Source: Candidatus Nanohaloarchaea archaeon
GTDB taxonomy: Archaea > Nanohalarchaeota > Nanosalinia > Nanosalinales > Nanosalinaceae
Length of the DNA: 60,687 nt
NCBI GenBank assembly: GCA_041639695.1
Contig: JBEQBQ010000006.1
Coordinates: forward strand, 1-60,687
Reading direction: 5' to 3'
Shown here: one piece after another, positions 54,871 through 60,282 of the stretch
Numbering within the stretch: position 1 is the first letter of the stretch
How the letters are laid out: each line of letters starts with the position of its first letter
Notes under the pieces: generated by a model
Told to the model about the DNA's origin: nothing
What the model saw: the letters and a program-made list of their open reading frames with translations, nothing else
Database searches by the model: none
Program-made: the position numbers and the translations under genes

Positions 54871-55689
54871 ATGGCTTCATCTACTCCTATGTTGGTTAAC
54901 GGGAGCAACTCTGGAAATCTGGAAAACGCCGAAGAGATTCTTGATCTAAACTTCATACAGACAGAGGATGAATGGGAGCCAAATCACCTAGAAGGTGCGG
55001 AAAAAGTAGAGGAGAATATTGAGAAATACAGGAAAAACGTTATTGAAGAAGACTCAACAAAACACGACGGCGAACTACCCTTCATAAAACATATAGAAAG
55101 GTATAGCGGCCATATGGACGTATACCTTGGTAAAACCACCTTTTCGGAATACATGCACGCTGTGCAGTCACCTACAGTTGTGGGAAGAACTGTTACCTCT
55201 GATAACAAACTTCTAATGGGTGTAAGAGGAGAAGATGTCTCAAGCGAAAACGGCAAAACAGCTTTCCCCGGGGGATTTATCGATATATATGAGGAGCCTC
55301 TTGAAGCAGTAAGAAGAGAGGTTGCGGAAGAGATATCGCCTGAAATTGATATAGAGTCTACAGAACTACTGGGATTTGTTTATCCTGATGTCAATCAAAC
55401 CGATGGGACTTTGGTGGAGGATCCTCAGCCACCTGTCTTCATGTATGATGTCTTCATCGACCAGGATATGCAACAAGTCAGAAAGGCATACACGGGAGAC
55501 GAATTTGAAGAACTTGAATTTATCGAACCGGCTGAACCCGTAGAATCCGGAAAATTCTCGCCCAACAGTCGAAGAACTATGAAAGCAGGCAGATATGGTA
55601 TAGCAACACAGCCACAGGAACCGCTCGAAGCATCACGGACTGGCTGGAGATCAAGCCTCAAGGCCGTAGGAAACTATCTCGCACCATAA
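54871..55689 (+). CDS. NUDIX hydrolase
   Basis: FPGGFID..EEPLEAVRREVAEE Nudix box. Confidence 0.85.
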   Translation: MASSTPMLVNGSNSGNLENAEEILDLNFIQTEDEWEPNHLEGAEKVEENIEKYRKNVIEEDSTKHDGELPFIKHIERYSGHMDVYLGKTTFSEYMHAVQSPTVVGRTVTSDNKLLMGVRGEDVSSENGKTAFPGGFIDIYEEPLEAVRREVAEEISPEIDIESTELLGFVYPDVNQTDGTLVEDPQPPVFMYDVFIDQDMQQVRKAYTGDEFEELEFIEPAEPVESGKFSPNSRRTMKAGRYGIATQPQEPLEASRTGWRSSLKAVGNYLAP

Positions 55690-55727
55690 CCTCTGGTTTT
55701 TAAACCGATTTCACTAAAGAATTCTCT

Positions 55728-56492
55728 GTGATATTAGAGCTTTTTCTTATTTGCTCTGCTGTATTGGCGGGCGGCTTAATGAAAGGTTTGAACGGCTTTG
55801 GATATGCCGTGATTGCAACATCCATTCTTTCGTTCTTTTTGCCGGCTTCAGAAGCCGTTGTAGTAGCTATAATTCCTTTAATGGCAGCACAGATCGATTT
55901 GGTTTTCGAACTAGATTCTTCATCCTTCAAGAGGTGTTTCAAGCGTTTTTATCCTTATGTCTTCTCTGCTATGGCAGGGACATTTCTGGGCGTCCTTATG
56001 CTCGACATGGTGCCGGAAAGATTTATTGCAACAGGTCTTGGAGTTTTCATAATTTTGTTCAGTGTTTCAAGAACCGGTTACGGCAATAAGATCTCTGAAA
56101 TAATATCGGACAAATGTTTCGAGGAAAAAACCATTTTTAAGACAGCTCTAGGATTTATTTCGGGCCTGATTTTTGGCTCGACTAATATAGGTGTTCAGGT
56201 GGTCGCATACCTTGAATCGCTCGAACTTGATAGAGAACTATTTATTGGCGTTCTCGCCATGATCTTCCTGTTTATCTCCGGTCTTAGAGTAGTCATGTCG
56301 TTTACTTTAGGTTTATACAGTTCGGGCAACATGCTCATGATATCAGCACTAGCAGCACTACCCGGGTTAGCAGGTATTGCTATAGGACAGAGAATAGCCG
56401 ACTTTATTCAGGAAGGCCGACTTGAGAAAATAACTTTGTTGATGCTTTTCCTGATTGGATTACGTCTATTATCCAAAGCATTTATTGGTTAA
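55728..56492 (+). CDS. TauE/SafE (TSUP) family transporter
   Basis: AGGLMKGLNGFG; repeated GFISGLIFG; about 8 TM. Confidence 0.85.
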   Translation: MILELFLICSAVLAGGLMKGLNGFGYAVIATSILSFFLPASEAVVVAIIPLMAAQIDLVFELDSSSFKRCFKRFYPYVFSAMAGTFLGVLMLDMVPERFIATGLGVFIILFSVSRTGYGNKISEIISDKCFEEKTIFKTALGFISGLIFGSTNIGVQVVAYLESLELDRELFIGVLAMIFLFISGLRVVMSFTLGLYSSGNMLMISALAALPGLAGIAIGQRIADFIQEGRLEKITLLMLFLIGLRLLSKAFIG

Positions 56493-56508
56493 ACCAATCG
56501 TGTTATCT

Positions 56509-57024
56509 ATGAATCCTTTAAATGGAAATGTTGGAAAGGTTGATGAGGCCGCAGAACTACTGGAAGAGAACGGGTATACTGTAGATAACACCTGGGCTTT
56601 TCTAGAAAGAAGGAACGAACATCCTGTATACGGAGAGACAGCAACCGAAGCAGTCCAGGGACTTCTCGAGGACGATGATACATCCTTCTCGATAAACATG
56701 GATGTCTATCCGGATGGCGTCACAGACAGAAAAGGCGAGGTCAAAATCTCTTATTCTCCGGAAAAGGACTACTTCAGCGTTCAGAGCGTAAGACCTTCCA
56801 ACGAAGTTGAAGACACTCAAGGACTCAAACATCTTGCACAAACAAGTCCGGAACAACTAGGATCAGAAAATAACAGGATCATACTCAACCAAATTCCTGA
56901 AGATGCAATATTCGAGATGGACCGTGTAGACGCAGCAGTAGAAAGACTGTTAACGGACGCAGGATACAGAGTCCAAGTCGGTAACAACTACGTAGACAAC
57001 CCGGCTGTCAAAGAGTTTCCATAG
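56509..57024 (+). CDS. hypothetical acidic protein
   Basis: ATG at 56509 after tauE. Confidence 0.6.
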   Translation: MNPLNGNVGKVDEAAELLEENGYTVDNTWAFLERRNEHPVYGETATEAVQGLLEDDDTSFSINMDVYPDGVTDRKGEVKISYSPEKDYFSVQSVRPSNEVEDTQGLKHLAQTSPEQLGSENNRIILNQIPEDAIFEMDRVDAAVERLLTDAGYRVQVGNNYVDNPAVKEFP

Positions 57025-57091
57025 TATTCGCTCAAAAACCGGGGTTCGATATGGTTTAAAAGAATTTACGTTTAATCCAACGATACAGGAT

Positions 57092-57198
57092 GCGGAGCTA
57101 GTGTAGTCTGGCCCATCATACCACCCTGTCATCCACTGAAAACTCTGTTTTTGGTGGACGGAGCGGTGGTAACGCGGGTTCAAATCCCGCGCTCCGCG
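57092..57198 (+). tRNA. tRNA-Asp(GTC) with 32-nt intron at 37/38 (57132-57163)
   Basis: GCGGAGC/GCTCCGC acceptor stem, G73, CCACC-CT-GTC-A|intron|C-GGTGG; BHB helix CUGU:ACGG with 3-nt bulges; TTTAAA upstream. Confidence 0.93.
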
Positions 57199-57223
57199 TT
57201 CCAACGTTTTCTCGAGACTTCCT

Positions 57224-57978
57224 TTAGTTTCCTAGGTCGTTATATTGCTTTTTGGGATGTCTTGGCTTGATTCTGTTGTTGAATTCTCTGGCTGAATCGC
57301 CGGATATACGGAGTTTATACATATCCCTCCAGTTCTGTTTTCTGGCCTTTTCGCAATAATTGGTGTGTTCAATCCCAAGTTCGGTTAGGATTTCTGAAAA
57401 ATTATCTCTCAGTTTCGGACTAATAGTGCCATATATGTACCTCCTGAATTTGGTCTCTTTGTGGCCGTCTGTGTCGATTAAACCTCTAATAAATCCTTTC
57501 TTAAACTCTCTAGAAAGCTGTTTTTCTGTATCAAGCATTACAGTTGCCGTTTTGTCTTTTTTCCAGCTGAGGTTCTGTTTCAAAACTAGGTAAATCTTCT
57601 TAGAGTTAATCTAAGGGTGGTGAGCGACTTATTCTTGTCATGAAATATTATTGGTTTCTTTCCTAATTTGCTAGTAAAAAACTCTTCCAGTACTTCCCAG
57701 TAGGAATCTTGGTAATTTAGTAAAAACTGGATTCTGTAATGACCTTCCTTCTGTTTATGAAAGTTTCCGTCTCCTGCGAATATTCCGCAGAGCTCGCCTT
57801 TAAACTCTTCACATTCCAGTATCTCTGGCTGGTTCTCTTTCTGTTTCTGCCCTACCTCCTTCCGGAAATGGTAGTAGACAGTTGATTTAGGTATATCCAG
57901 TTCTTCCTTGATCTGGTTTACGGATTTGCCGTTTGACGCCATCGACTTTATCTTCCGGATATCTTTATCGGAAGCCAT
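57224..57978 (-). pseudogene. free-standing HTH plus two-motif LAGLIDADG endonuclease, split by a 1-nt frameshift
   Basis: N-terminal HTH (SVNQIKEELDIPKSTVYYH), motif 1 ELCGIFAGDG, motif 2 GFIRGLIDTDG; frames join near 57607-57611 (TTLR.NSKKIYLVLK). Confidence 0.82.
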
Positions 57979-58068: not shown

Positions 58069-58710
58069 TCAACTCTCCATTACCGCCTCTATCTTGCCGC
58101 GGATCTCGTCTATGAAACCGGTTAGATAAATTTCTCCTCCGACAGCGACTACAACCCCGCCCAAAGTGTCGAACACTAAGTCTTTCATCGTATCGTTAAG
58201 ACCGTGTTGCGTAAGAACTGTATCGGTTCCAAGCACTTCGGCAAGTAGCGAGATTCCGTACTCCAAGAGCTCCCAGACAACTCCGAATGCCAGTATAAAG
58301 ATCATCAGAAAGGCAAACATGTACTTTCCAGGAAGCTTTATCTCGTCATAGTGTTCATCGATCGCTCTCACCGTGGAGTAGCCTGCTGCTGCAACTACAG
58401 ACGATGAAAGAGTATGTGTCAAATGGTCCCACCAAGAAATCGTTGAGTAGGGGCCTAGTGTTCCTGCCGCGTGTAAGAATACTGCGAGTGTCAGCCATAA
58501 GACTAGAGCAGGATCCATAACAATCTCGTAATCTCTTTCCAGTATTCCCGGGATAAAGGTTACCAGGAAGCTGACAAGCGAGTTTACAAACAGTCCCATG
58601 TTCTGTCTGTAAGCTCCGAAAAGAACCATGAAAAGCAGTGATATCTGCATCAACCGACTAGCTCTCTTCTGGTTCTTTTTGCTGATTCCTAGACGGTCTC
58701 TAATTTTCAT
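58069..58710 (-). CDS. membrane protein (DUF2238-like, WWDHLTH/WELLE/DT..DL motifs)
   Basis: Conserved His/Glu/Asp in TM helices. Confidence 0.78.
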   Translation of the reverse strand: MKIRDRLGISKKNQKRASRLMQISLLFMVLFGAYRQNMGLFVNSLVSFLVTFIPGILERDYEIVMDPALVLWLTLAVFLHAAGTLGPYSTISWWDHLTHTLSSSVVAAAGYSTVRAIDEHYDEIKLPGKYMFAFLMIFILAFGVVWELLEYGISLLAEVLGTDTVLTQHGLNDTMKDLVFDTLGGVVVAVGGEIYLTGFIDEIRGKIEAVMES

Positions 58711-59285
58711 ACGTCTTTCAACCTCCTGTCCCTCCTTCTGAAGTAAGTATTAAACACTAGTCCTGCGAAGATTCCGGCGAACAGGGCTGCCGTGAACTCA
58801 TGCATCAGTACTTCGTTTGAATTGATGAATGATGAACCCAGGTAGATGTCGTGGATCCATCTTGCGATAGACCATAGAGCGGCGACCGCCAGAGTTGAAA
58901 GGGTTACAAGTAAAACAGAGAAGCCGGTGTTGGTCTTGAAACCGGTATATGTATCTATCTCGGTTATTATGAGTAGTGAAACTGTTGCTGCAGTGATATA
59001 ATTGAGTGTATTGGAGGCTATGAAGCCTAACTCCATTCCTTGTAAGGTAAACGGCACTGAGAGAAGTAACAATATTTCGAATGGAGGCATTACAAGATGG
59101 TTGCTTCTAATTATGGCGGGTAAAAGTATCAGTCCTAAAACGGTTAGAGAGAAAATGCTCCAGAGCCTGTTACCGTCCAAAAGAATGTTGGCTGTCGTAA
59201 CAAGCATGTAGCCTGAGAGAATCCATGAGAGAGCTGCGTTTTTCTTCCGCCCAAGAAATATCGATGATTCCAGATATTCGCGCAT
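58707..59285 (-). CDS. membrane protein, apparent divergent paralog of the downstream gene
   Basis: Similar TM layout; ATGA overlap. Confidence 0.72.
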   Translation of the reverse strand: MREYLESSIFLGRKKNAALSWILSGYMLVTTANILLDGNRLWSIFSLTVLGLILLPAIIRSNHLVMPPFEILLLLSVPFTLQGMELGFIASNTLNYITAATVSLLIITEIDTYTGFKTNTGFSVLLVTLSTLAVAALWSIARWIHDIYLGSSFINSNEVLMHEFTAALFAGIFAGLVFNTYFRRRDRRLKDV

Positions 59286-59346
59286 AAGGAATAATTTTTC
59301 CCTCTATAAGCTTGTTCTGCTGCATGTTAAAAAAAGGCCACCTGTT

Positions 59347-60282
59347 TTAGAAGAGAAGCAGAACGAATGAAAACGCTGCTAAACTTGCTGTCATCGAAAC
59401 CACGAAGTTAAGCGCCACCGTTTCAAAGTTGTAGTTTTCATGGTTATCCTTCCATATATCGAGCCCTACCTGCAGTGTTACCGCTGTAATGGAAATCAGT
59501 AAAACCGAAAATACGTAGACTGACGCGTTCGAAATACTTGGCCGTATAAAGAATGCAGCTGGACCGAAAGCAAGGCCGATCAGGCTTGAAAGCCTTACAG
59601 AGTCAGTAATACTTCTTTGATTAAGGTAGAAGATTGTCAGTAAACCTGCCCAAATAATAGCAAGTTCCAGGGTGAAGACAGCAAGAAAGTTCAGAACAGG
59701 GCCCTGAAAGATCTGTAGTCTTTCAGTCAGAAAAACTACACCTAGAGGTTCAAAGAAGTTAGGTGGAACGCCGGTGAAAACATCGCCGAAAGGATGAGAA
59801 AGAAGGCCTAAAGTTGGAGCCATTAAAAATTCTCTTGCAGAAAAATCAAAGTAGGTTGATGCGAGCTCAGTTAATAAAAGTCCTGTAAGGCCGAAAAGCG
59901 CTACAAGTGTTGAGATCAAGGCGCCGCCGAAAAAGAAGCCGAAACCTGTTAGGATACTTACAGAGGCTACAGCTGTAAAGATATTTCTGTACCGGTAATG
60001 GAGAGTGAACAGACTTGTGCCTAGAACCGCTGTTACAAGGCTGTGGGTGAGGTTTCTGTGAGTTACTGTGGATGCAGCCCAGAATGACTCAAAGATTTCC
60101 TGGCTTCCGGGAGAAAGAATCCCGGCAATCTCTTTGAAAGCATAAATAATGTCTATGTCGGGCATCGCAGCAAATAATCCTGCAAACACGGCTAAGACCA
60201 GAGCCTTTTCTCTGTCTATACCTATTGCTAGGGAAAGTATGCCTGTGAGTGCGATTGCTAGAAAGGAGTGTCCTACAAACAT
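59347..60282 (-). CDS. membrane-bound metal-dependent hydrolase (DUF457-like)
   Basis: MFVGH, PDID, HRNLTHS, SHPFGDVFTG.PP. Confidence 0.85.
   Translation of the reverse strand: MFVGHSFLAIALTGILSLAIGIDREKALVLAVFAGLFAAMPDIDIIYAFKEIAGILSPGSQEIFESFWAASTVTHRNLTHSLVTAVLGTSLFTLHYRYRNIFTAVASVSILTGFGFFFGGALISTLVALFGLTGLLLTELASTYFDFSAREFLMAPTLGLLSHPFGDVFTGVPPNFFEPLGVVFLTERLQIFQGPVLNFLAVFTLELAIIWAGLLTIFYLNQRSITDSVRLSSLIGLAFGPAAFFIRPSISNASVYVFSVLLISITAVTLQVGLDIWKDNHENYNFETVALNFVVSMTASLAAFSFVLLLF

Follow-up and report, generated by a model that had tools for sequence, protein, structure and literature searches.

The DNA analyzed here, which we call the window, is the whole 60,687-nt contig JBEQBQ010000006.1 of a Candidatus Nanohaloarchaea archaeon; it carries a free-standing LAGLIDADG nuclease gene whose 3' end faces that of an intron-bearing tRNA-Asp gene. 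We conclude with considerable confidence that the nuclease gene is a mobile homing-endonuclease gene belonging to a family that homes at tRNA genes. It is also likely, with assembly caveats included, that the window lineage gained its tRNA-Asp intron through the exchange of a block involving the nuclease gene. Combining these observations, we lean toward a model in which a mobile nuclease gene residing at tRNA genes would cut uninterrupted tRNA-Asp genes, while an intron or a rare anticodon stem would shield the resident gene and would be copied along with the nuclease gene during repair.

The nuclease gene and its tRNA-Asp neighbor

All genomes compared here are metagenome assemblies. The window constitutes the entire contig C6 of genome G000 (971 kb in 38 contigs). 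In what follows, G numbers denote genomes, of which there are 70 in the phylum, L numbers denote loci, P numbers denote homologous proteins, and g codes denote genera. The features of the locus, with the evidence for each in parentheses, are the following:

57092..57131, + strand, tRNA-Asp(GUC) 5' exon, tRNA positions 1-37 (RF00005, hand parse, orthologues)
57132..57163, + strand, intron of 32 nt at the canonical 37/38 position (strict bulge-helix-bulge fold)
57164..57198, + strand, tRNA-Asp 3' exon, from position 38 to the discriminator G, CCA not encoded (sequence reading)
57199..57223, no strand, spacer of 25 nt separating the tRNA 3' end from the endonuclease stop codon; the genes converge (coordinates)
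57224..57978, - strand, free-standing gene with a helix-turn-helix (HTH) domain and a double-motif LAGLIDADG homing endonuclease, apparently of active type (two frames in the window; a 251-aa frame with the extra base)
57586-57978, - strand, N part of the nuclease, 130 aa, HTH and motif 1 (open reading frame, ORF)
57224-57583, - strand, C part of the nuclease, 119 aa, PF14528 LAGLIDADG_3 and motif 2 (ORF, Pfam)
57835..57978, - strand, N-terminal three-helix HTH domain, aa 1-48 (alignment; sub-cut-off Pfam hits; helices 4-15, 20-27 and 31-48 in the model of the G022 orthologue)
57757..57792, - strand, LAGLIDADG motif 1, LCGIFAGDGNFH, with acidic residue; also the right-hand crossover of the exchanged block (alignment, identity scan)
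57461..57493, - strand, LAGLIDADG motif 2, FIRGLIDTDGH, with acidic residue (PF14528)
57606..57610, - strand, site of a one-base frame break (independent contig with an extra T behind 57608)
57126..57760, no strand, block of ~635 bp that is 40-60% identical to congener G002 (sliding identity)

The core of motif 1 reads LCGIFAGDGNF and motif 2 reads FIRGLIDTDGH; the acidic residue of both motifs is kept in 22/22 aligned sequences, and the G-D-G of motif 1 and the D-T-D-G of motif 2 are nearly invariant. The C part matches PF14528 (LAGLIDADG_3) with an E value of 1.1e-15 and 58.1 bits against a cut-off of 22.5, and the N part gives weak Pfam HTH matches, the best at E 1e-4 and below cut-off. The most conserved part of the family in the alignment is the HTH segment KSTVYYHF.KEVGQKQK. 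The gene is single-copy in the G000 genome (tblastn), and its stop codon (57224-57226) lies exactly 25 nt from the tRNA-Asp 3' end, the two genes being convergent. An earlier note, made from the letters of the window, had described an HTH plus two-motif LAGLIDADG gene ending 25 nt from the 3' end of the only intron-containing tRNA in the window; we confirm both the arrangement (57224-57978, - strand) and the singularity of the intron, as the remaining window tRNAs (Gly-TCC, Ala-CGC, and Glu-CTC) are all intronless.

The family profile matches I-DmoI (E 1.3e-6, positions 60-209). For the fold we used an AlphaFold model of the G022 orthologue, a different protein from that of the window (71% identical to it in the N part and 50% in the C part), with a predicted local distance difference test score (pLDDT) of 90.8. 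The model contains an N-terminal domain of three helices, a linker predicted with low confidence, and two alpha-beta-beta-alpha-beta-beta-alpha domains, the order of helices (H) and strands (E) being H-E-E-H-E-E-H twice. Foldseek searches with this model retrieved I-DmoI (E ~2e-8, template modeling score [TM] ~0.7, target-normalized), I-Tsp061I, I-SceI, and intein endonucleases. Judging from its sequence, the gene is apparently a free-standing LAGLIDADG endonuclease gene of the active type.

In the window, the frame is broken at a stretch conserved as RY.SK in an alignment with 20 intact relatives of 245-269 aa. Run X1, a hypersaline-lake metagenome, is the sole run containing the stretch (0.94 of sampled words) and is probably the source sample; all X1 evidence comes from Logan contigs. 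No RNA data set was listed among those containing the stretch. A single X1 contig spans the break (2112 nt, depth 9.65) and contains an additional T behind 57608; this T restores one open frame of 251 aa ending at the normal stop, the break reading ...LRYNSKK.... We also considered a lost A in TTAAAC as the cause of the break, which proved wrong, the contig showing the extra T behind 57608. The frameshift reported in the earlier note is thus present in the window as stated, but it most likely reflects an error of assembly or consensus calling, or else a minor variant, and we treat the gene as intact in the population.

The tRNA at 57092-57198 (+ strand) matches Rfam RF00005 with 47.2 bits (gathering score 29). 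A default ARAGORN run did not report a tRNA at 57092-57198, and with introns allowed the program called it tRNA-Ser(gga) i(38,32). We rejected this call in favor of tRNA-Asp(GUC) for four reasons: its variable region has 4 nt, its discriminator is a G, its loop is CU-GUC-A, and five relatives have tRNA-Asp(gtc) as the orthologue, with introns of 31-33 nt or none. The acceptor stem is GCGGAGC/GCUCCGC, and the anticodon loop continues from CU-GUC-A through the 32 nt to C38. This is the sole tRNA-Asp among the 43 ARAGORN calls of the 971-kb G000 genome. The exon-intron junctions satisfy the strict hBHBh' motif, with 4/4 pairs in the central helix CUGU (positions 32-35)/ACGG, an outer helix of 11 bp, and splice sites in the 3-nt bulges CAU (after CA) and AGC (after AG). 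The 32-nt intron holds no ORF.

Homologous introns of 27-39 nt occur at the same site in seven other genomes and seven metagenome loci. Twelve of these were parsed, those of G067 and L115 being omitted from the splice-motif parse because an internal CGGT misled the script: five have a central helix of 4 or 3/4 pairs and a 3-nt 3' bulge, and the other seven need a 4-nt 3' bulge to keep a 4-bp central helix. The 4-nt 3' bulges in 7/12 introns would demand a splicing endonuclease of relaxed specificity.

Across the G000 genome, 13/43 ARAGORN calls contain an intron. Three of these introns are implausibly long (160-2089 nt), namely Ile-aat with 471 nt, Gln-ttg with 2089 nt, and Phe-aaa with 160 nt on contigs C3, C7, and C33, and are probably false or mis-parsed. 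A tRNA-Gly of G068 was likewise named Leu by ARAGORN -i, a call rejected on reading the sequence. Intron-bearing ARAGORN calls in these genomes therefore need an eye check (Asp as Ser, Gly as Leu).

Residence at tRNA genes, mobility, and exchanged cassettes

A profile search of the 70 phylum genomes recovered full-length family members in G000, G002, G015, G021, G022 (two copies), G024, G046, G067, and G068, as well as a remnant in G060. Every one of these 11 copies adjoins a tRNA: eight, including the remnant, at tRNA-Asp, and three at tRNA-Gly(GCC), where 0-2 nt separate the nuclease stop codon from the tRNA 3' end. Within Nanohaloarchaeota, the family has one lineage resident at tRNA-Asp(GUC) and a sister lineage resident at tRNA-Gly(GCC). 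The 13 intein-type LAGLIDADG loci that this search also recovered (frames of 449-2013 aa) served as a control, and none has a tRNA in its ~3.5-kb locus; among the weaker free-standing LAGLIDADG genes of the search, four of five do. Metagenome contigs yielded 47 loci, 34 with a tRNA no more than 60 nt from the match end and three more that stop at the contig end. Among 21 long matches to other DPANN genomes (Nanoarchaeia, Woese-, Pace-, Aenigmat-, and Micrarchaeota), a tRNA lies within 20 nt in 13 and within 150 nt in 19. Viral contigs gave only three weak matches (26-29% identity), none with a tRNA. The adjacency to tRNA genes is far beyond chance. The sources of two homologues, P0011 and P0012, are labeled Nanohaloarchaea.

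In the distant members (L170-L190 and L134-L156; 28-40% identity), the 3' end of the gene mostly directly abuts a same-strand tRNA at its 5' end or overlaps it by a few bases, an orientation unlike the convergent nanohaloarchaeal layout. Gly(CCC) is frequent among their tRNAs, which also include Ala, Pro, Glu, Val, and Phe. Another group of free-standing LAGLIDADG genes, more distantly related, has frames of 261-287 aa (profile E 1e-13 to 1e-17), and its loci hold intron-bearing tRNAs: Leu in L072/G007, Ser/Met in L073/G004, Leu in L075/G061, and Ser/Gln/Leu in L077/G069.

At the tRNA-Asp locus, a gene for a 408-aa pyridine-nucleotide-disulphide oxidoreductase lies upstream of the tRNA in 20/20 of the related loci first fetched, and the locus is therefore orthologous across these genomes. 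Congener flanks align on both sides, with offsets of 734 nt (G021 vs G058), 709 nt (G024 vs G008), and 778 nt (G002 vs G001), which shows that the nuclease gene is an endonuclease-sized presence/absence polymorphism between congeners. In G015 it is found upstream of tRNA-Asp, on the same strand and 84 nt before it, and the downstream flank is of the empty-site type, an arrangement that suggests a separate insertion event on the opposite side of the tRNA. Incomplete or interrupted copies also occur: the G060 remnant encodes aa 1-89 only and lies 25 nt from an intronless tRNA, and the Gly-linked copy of G067 carries an in-frame TAA.

In the protein tree, G000 and G022 fall into one clade (100/99), with their congeners G002 and G046 outside it. 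Approximately unbiased (AU) tests reject same-genus clades (p 8e-4 for G000+G002 and 2e-7 for G022+G046), the groups tested being the tool's genus codes, chosen after the tree was seen. The Gly-linked copies are nested within the Asp clade, so the family has switched tRNA at least once.

As tRNA genes are frequent integration sites in archaea, the nuclease gene might instead be cargo of a larger integrative element using tRNA-Asp as its attachment site, and the region 58069-60282 downstream in G000 is indeed missing in G002. However, the indel of 709-778 nt corresponds to the nuclease gene alone, between conserved genes, in three congener pairs; no integrase was seen, and a search of G000 for a left-behind, duplicated tRNA-Asp 3' half found none. 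We regard such an element as highly improbable.

The sequence behind the endonuclease gene varies among these genomes. In G000, 58069-60282 (- strand) encodes three membrane proteins (DUF2238-like, one of no family, and YdjM-like) that are absent from G002, where the next shared gene lies ~75 nt past the endonuclease start and is 44% identical, compared with 85-91% for the upstream genes. The sequence that follows tRNA-Asp has the look of a variable island. In G057 (C12), a 199-aa P-loop kinase-like ORF occupies ~158-757 nt after tRNA-Asp, a stretch that in relatives contains the endonuclease gene or is an empty spacer. Contigs stop in or right after tRNA-Asp in G006 (C2), G010 (C39), G013 (C40 and C3), and G050 (C20 and C113); the G013 contig ends flank the anticodon stem-loop, and G050 has two alternative continuations after the tRNA. 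These breaks suggest strain-level variation at the site in those samples.

The ratio of nonsynonymous to synonymous divergence (dN/dS) of the nuclease is 0.089 (G022 vs L112), 0.057 (G021 vs L125), 0.085 (G022b vs L120), and 0.159 (G046 vs L121); dS is saturated for the nuclease in G022 vs L114 and for the oxidoreductase in G021 vs L125. Strong purifying selection on the nuclease coding sequence is thereby shown, and function has been kept over long spans, which equally fits a host-serving role, or long vertical maintenance, and recurrent homing. In two pairs the nuclease has diverged like the neighboring housekeeping gene: dN 0.071 and dS 0.80 vs dN 0.058 and dS 0.95 for the oxidoreductase in G022 vs L112, and a proportion of nonsynonymous differences (pN) of 0.118 vs 0.147 in G021 vs L125. 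The locus of G022 and L112 is collinear and uniformly diverged (83.9% identity over 3957 nt), and the N-terminal HTH is very strongly conserved throughout. These values would suit a domesticated, host-serving nuclease or a tRNA-locus regulator that is inherited mainly vertically with occasional allele replacement, for example one that cuts intact tRNA-Asp-derived attachment sites of integrating plasmids or viruses while the intron masks the host gene.

Against such domestication, the gene is present at tRNA-Asp in only 7 of the 45 genomes (out of 70) in which tRNA-Asp could be scored and is lost or absent in congeners, a remnant (G060) and a stop-codon copy (G067) exist, and same-genus clades are rejected. 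A pure regulator is further disfavored by the retention of the catalytic residues and by the position of the HTH, which is N-terminal and not C-terminal. The earlier note had named behavior as a vertically inherited, WhiA-like regulator as the outcome that would overturn its proposal; we rejected this possibility, as the distribution is patchy, the indel between congeners is clean, the gene occurs on either side of the tRNA, the protein tree is incongruent with genus, and no WhiA-type Pfam match at E<=1 was found in the nuclease ORFs. Overall, we consider a domesticated nuclease or regulator improbable.

In some pairs, the intron and part of the nuclease gene have also been exchanged as one block. 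Between G000 and G002, identity is 85-95% from ~55030 to 57125, which is inside the 5' exon (tRNA position ~34), and again 93-95% at 57763-57882 (from motif 1 toward the N terminus, codons ~30-72), the sequences being unalignable past 57973. The dissimilar block between these flanks, 57126-57760, comprises the 3' side of the anticodon arm, the intron, the 3' exon, the spacer, and the C-terminal ~3/4 of the endonuclease. The N part of the G000 nuclease (73 aa) is nearest to G002 (84%) and then to P0013 (77%), and its C part is nearest to P0001, P0002, and P0005 (60-61%) and is 43% identical to G002. The G002 protein groups as a whole with P0013 (96/98). Because G000 is chimeric and G002 coherent, G000 appears to be the recombinant: a G002-like locus would have received a foreign block. 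From these affinities, it is the received block that appears to have brought the intron and a different nuclease C part to a recipient with an intronless tRNA and a nuclease gene of another clade.

Two further pairs show cassettes of this kind. L114 and L118, from one metagenome, have flanks that are 93-100% identical and differ in a block that begins ~40 nt upstream of the tRNA and extends to nuclease codon ~75; the tRNA-Asp has an intron in one allele and, in the other, no intron but the rare stem described below. In L121 vs G022, the swap is confined to the nuclease C part. The crossovers fall in conserved stretches, namely the tRNA and the N-terminal region of the nuclease, and the cassettes therefore prove horizontal exchange of intron and nuclease sequence, yet they do not locate the break. 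The exchanged block of intron and nuclease sequence looks like the product of co-conversion between lineages.

The assembly of the probable source sample counts to some extent against this history. An X1 contig (3639 nt, depth 15.8) joins the G000 upstream flank to an intronless tRNA-Asp; it has no mismatch over 56700-57131, and the joint omits exactly 57132-57163 (the depth of the nuclease-bearing contig being 9.65). The same flank could carry both intronless and intron-bearing forms in the sample. An equally likely explanation is a cross-over in the assembly graph, because the 5' exon is common to many organisms in the sample (summed depth 5052 in the bin), and the window's own join across the shared 5' exon could be chimeric.

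The intron, the anticodon stem, and the proposed cut site

In the 45 scored genomes, the tRNA-Asp intron (27-33 nt at 37/38) is present in eight (G000, G015, G018, G021, G022, G024, G057, and G067) and absent in 37. Divided by the presence of the nuclease gene at tRNA-Asp, the counts are:

Nuclease gene present (7 genomes): intron present in 5, absent in 2 (G002, G046)
Nuclease gene absent (38 genomes): intron present in 3 (G018, G057, G067), absent in 35

The intron is thus found in 5/7 carriers vs 3/38 non-carriers (Fisher p 8e-4, a value that ignores kinship and so is overstated). States differ even within genera: in g1, G000 has both intron and nuclease gene, G002 the nuclease gene only, and G001 neither; in g20, G021 has both, G057 the intron only, and G058 neither; in g7, G024 has both and G008 neither. 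Together, the four states (intron present or absent, nuclease gene present or absent) form a natural series.

The Gly-linked nuclease genes are all beside an intron-bearing tRNA-Gly(GCC), in three genomes and six metagenome loci (two of them identical). The tRNA-Gly(GCC) intron is also found without a nuclease gene in G000, G002, G012, and G020, and none of the four intronless tRNA-Gly(GCC) genes seen has a nuclease gene. The correlation between tRNA-adjacent LAGLIDADG genes and introns that the earlier note proposed to look for thus exists at tRNA-Asp and for all tRNA-Gly(GCC) copies; the distant members of the family mostly abut intronless tRNAs.

Counting genomes and metagenome loci, nuclease-linked tRNA-Asp lineages number 11 with the intron and five without it. 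The five, each with an intact nuclease gene, are G002, G046/L119, L118, L127, and L124-126 (L119 is identical to the G046 locus, and L124-126 are identical to one another). Four of these five intronless carrier lineages have a rare anticodon stem, GATACC...GGTATC or GACACC...GGTGTC, in which pair 26-44 is G-C and pair 27-43 is A-U. The same stem occurs in 1/35 intronless non-carriers (G001; Fisher p 3e-4, uncorrected for kinship). A modified anticodon arm, either by the intron or by the G26-A27 stem, is accordingly present in 6/7 carriers vs 4/38 non-carriers. Of the indirect signs that the target may be in the anticodon stem-loop, the best is the enrichment, beside the nuclease gene, of two different alterations of the same arm.

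Based on these patterns, we propose the following mechanism. The enzyme would cut the uninterrupted tRNA-Asp gene in or near the anticodon stem-loop, and repair from a carrier would copy the nuclease gene plus the adjoining tRNA allele. A resident tRNA could escape by means of a 37/38 intron that splits the site or, alternatively, through the rare anticodon-stem variant G26-A27...U43-C44. The intron would then be both a shield and a passenger moved in trans, making the system an archaeal bulge-helix-bulge counterpart of collaborative homing. For the specific proposition that the enzyme cuts the uninterrupted anticodon region and that the intron or the rare stem is its shield, we judge the chances to be even.

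Several observations weigh against this mechanism. The intron, which the earlier note took to give immunity, is not required beside the nuclease gene: the gene is intact in the five intronless lineages listed above, and G018, G057, and G067 keep the intron with no nuclease gene or remnant detected at tRNA-Asp by tblastn at E<=1 (the ORFs beside intron-bearing, nuclease-free tRNA-Asp genes are unrelated to the nuclease). One of the intronless carriers, G002, has the common ATCACC stem. Sister nuclease genes lie beside intron-bearing (G021) and intronless (L124-126) alleles, and G022 and L121 share flank, tRNA, and a near-identical intron (86%) and have nuclease genes of different clades; intron and nuclease gene are therefore often uncoupled. 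The blocks exchanged in G000/G002 and L114/L118 would fit the spread by co-conversion suggested in the earlier note; in L121/G022 and G021/L124-126, intron and nuclease gene are uncoupled. In a kinship-controlled pairs test, run on the tree of the neighboring oxidoreductase with supported branches only and limited to three supported pairs, too few for statistical power, the intron alone scored 1.3 in the same direction as the nuclease gene vs 1.0 in the opposite direction; with "intron or rare stem" as the character, the same three-pair test gave 1.8 vs 0. Finally, in G000 only one of ~10-13 intron-bearing tRNAs has such a nuclease neighbor.

The main alternative is that a mobile gene homes beside tRNA-Asp with its cut site elsewhere, at the tRNA end or in the flank, and that the intron is a linked neutral marker that confers no immunity and is sometimes dragged along by co-conversion or ordinary recombination. 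The intact nuclease genes beside intronless tRNA-Asp in five lineages, the uncoupling of intron and nuclease clade (G022 vs L121, G021 vs L124-126), and the distant family members flush against intronless tRNAs would all be expected under this alternative. The left edges of the blocks also vary, from tRNA position ~10-30 to ~40 nt upstream and to the tRNA 3' end, as expected of crossovers in conserved stretches. However, insertions on both sides of the tRNA, as in G015 compared with the other genomes, are more readily explained by a cut within the tRNA than by one in the flank, and the flanks beyond the tRNA are not conserved between genera, so that a flank site could not support spread. The excess of modified anticodon arms (6/7 vs 4/38) is likewise not predicted by pure linkage, because two different modifications of the same arm are enriched. 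We consider a neutral, linked intron rather unlikely, though more plausible than domestication.

If the cut does lie in the anticodon region, selection would favor a bulge-helix-bulge intron at 37/38, or a substitution in the stem, for splitting or spoiling the nuclease site, and double-strand-break repair would spread the intron-bearing allele to naive genomes, providing trans-acting mobility for mini-introns that have no ORF. This would also explain the clustering of mini-introns at the anticodon loop and their turnover between close relatives. Extended to DPANN lineages in general, the suggestion that free-standing LAGLIDADG endonucleases cutting intact tRNA genes drive archaeal tRNA introns is a tentative one. 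A nuclease family tied to tRNA genes is a candidate engine for archaeal tRNA intron gain, and the family is a potential source of new tRNA-gene-specific meganucleases.

Relation to known systems

The closest solved relatives of the nuclease by sequence and fold are I-DmoI and I-Tsp061I, which likewise have two motifs per chain, are archaeal, and are associated with bulge-helix-bulge introns. I-DmoI-type enzymes are encoded inside archaeal rRNA introns and drive intron homing. Their genes lie within the intron they move, whereas here the nuclease is outside the tRNA and has an extra N-terminal HTH, and the 32-nt intron is too small to hold a gene. WhiA combines a LAGLIDADG-type fold with an HTH, as does the protein described here, but the HTH of WhiA is C-terminal and its catalytic residues are lost. 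The nuclease family differs in its N-terminal HTH, its retained acidic residues, and its patchy, mobile distribution.

Among phage systems, the most similar is F-CphI, encoded beside the intron-containing psbA gene of cyanophage S-PM2, where the ORF-less intron occupies the site that the nuclease would cleave and is reported to prevent self-cleavage, and the nuclease to give the intron mobility (Zeng, Bonocora and Shub 2009, PMC6083498). The layout here is the same, a free-standing endonuclease gene adjoining a gene with an ORF-less intron, and at the tRNA-Asp locus intron and nuclease gene co-vary. F-CphI/psbA, as described in that report, is a phage system that pairs a self-splicing group I intron with an Endo VII-type nuclease, whose cleavage has been shown (PMC6083498). 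Ours, a candidate case, involves a cellular archaeal tRNA, a protein-spliced bulge-helix-bulge intron, and a LAGLIDADG enzyme, and it includes intronless carriers.

SegB, a free-standing GIY-YIG endonuclease encoded in a tRNA cluster of phage T4, is described as promoting the preferential inheritance of its own gene and the flanking tRNA region (PMC2330249). The location of a free-standing endonuclease gene among tRNA genes is common to both cases, and the immunity that sequence differences give in SegB resembles that proposed here for the G26-A27 variants; according to the same source, SegB differs in belonging to a phage and to the GIY-YIG family and in involving no intron (PMC2330249). Phage T4 mobE is reported to mediate trans homing of the defunct I-TevIII intron (PMC2790892), and it thus offers a precedent for a free-standing endonuclease mobilizing a neighboring intron that is unable to move alone. 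The mobE system, as presented there, consists of an HNH enzyme and a group I intron in a phage protein-coding gene (PMC2790892).

In archaea, a mobile-element model of tRNA gene disruption has been put forward for tRNA-Thr(GGU) of Caldiarchaeum subterraneum (Sugahara et al. 2012, PMC3293823). There, too, population heterogeneity at one archaeal tRNA locus ties intron gain to a mobile element, which is described as a 1.8-kb putative transposable element that bears a recombinase and leaves tRNA fragments (PMC3293823). The tRNA-Asp locus has neither recombinase nor fragment, only a homing-endonuclease gene and allele replacement.

How archaeal tRNA introns arrive is left open by a recent preprint (10.64898/2026.10.13.758758). 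Our literature search, the coverage of which excluded subscription-only papers, returned no account of free-standing LAGLIDADG genes beside archaeal tRNA genes with bulge-helix-bulge introns. In light of this search, what is new relative to the systems above is the combination of a free-standing LAGLIDADG gene, a cellular archaeal tRNA gene, and a protein-spliced mini-intron, to which the locus adds a four-state series within genera, exchanged cassettes, and anticodon-stem variants.

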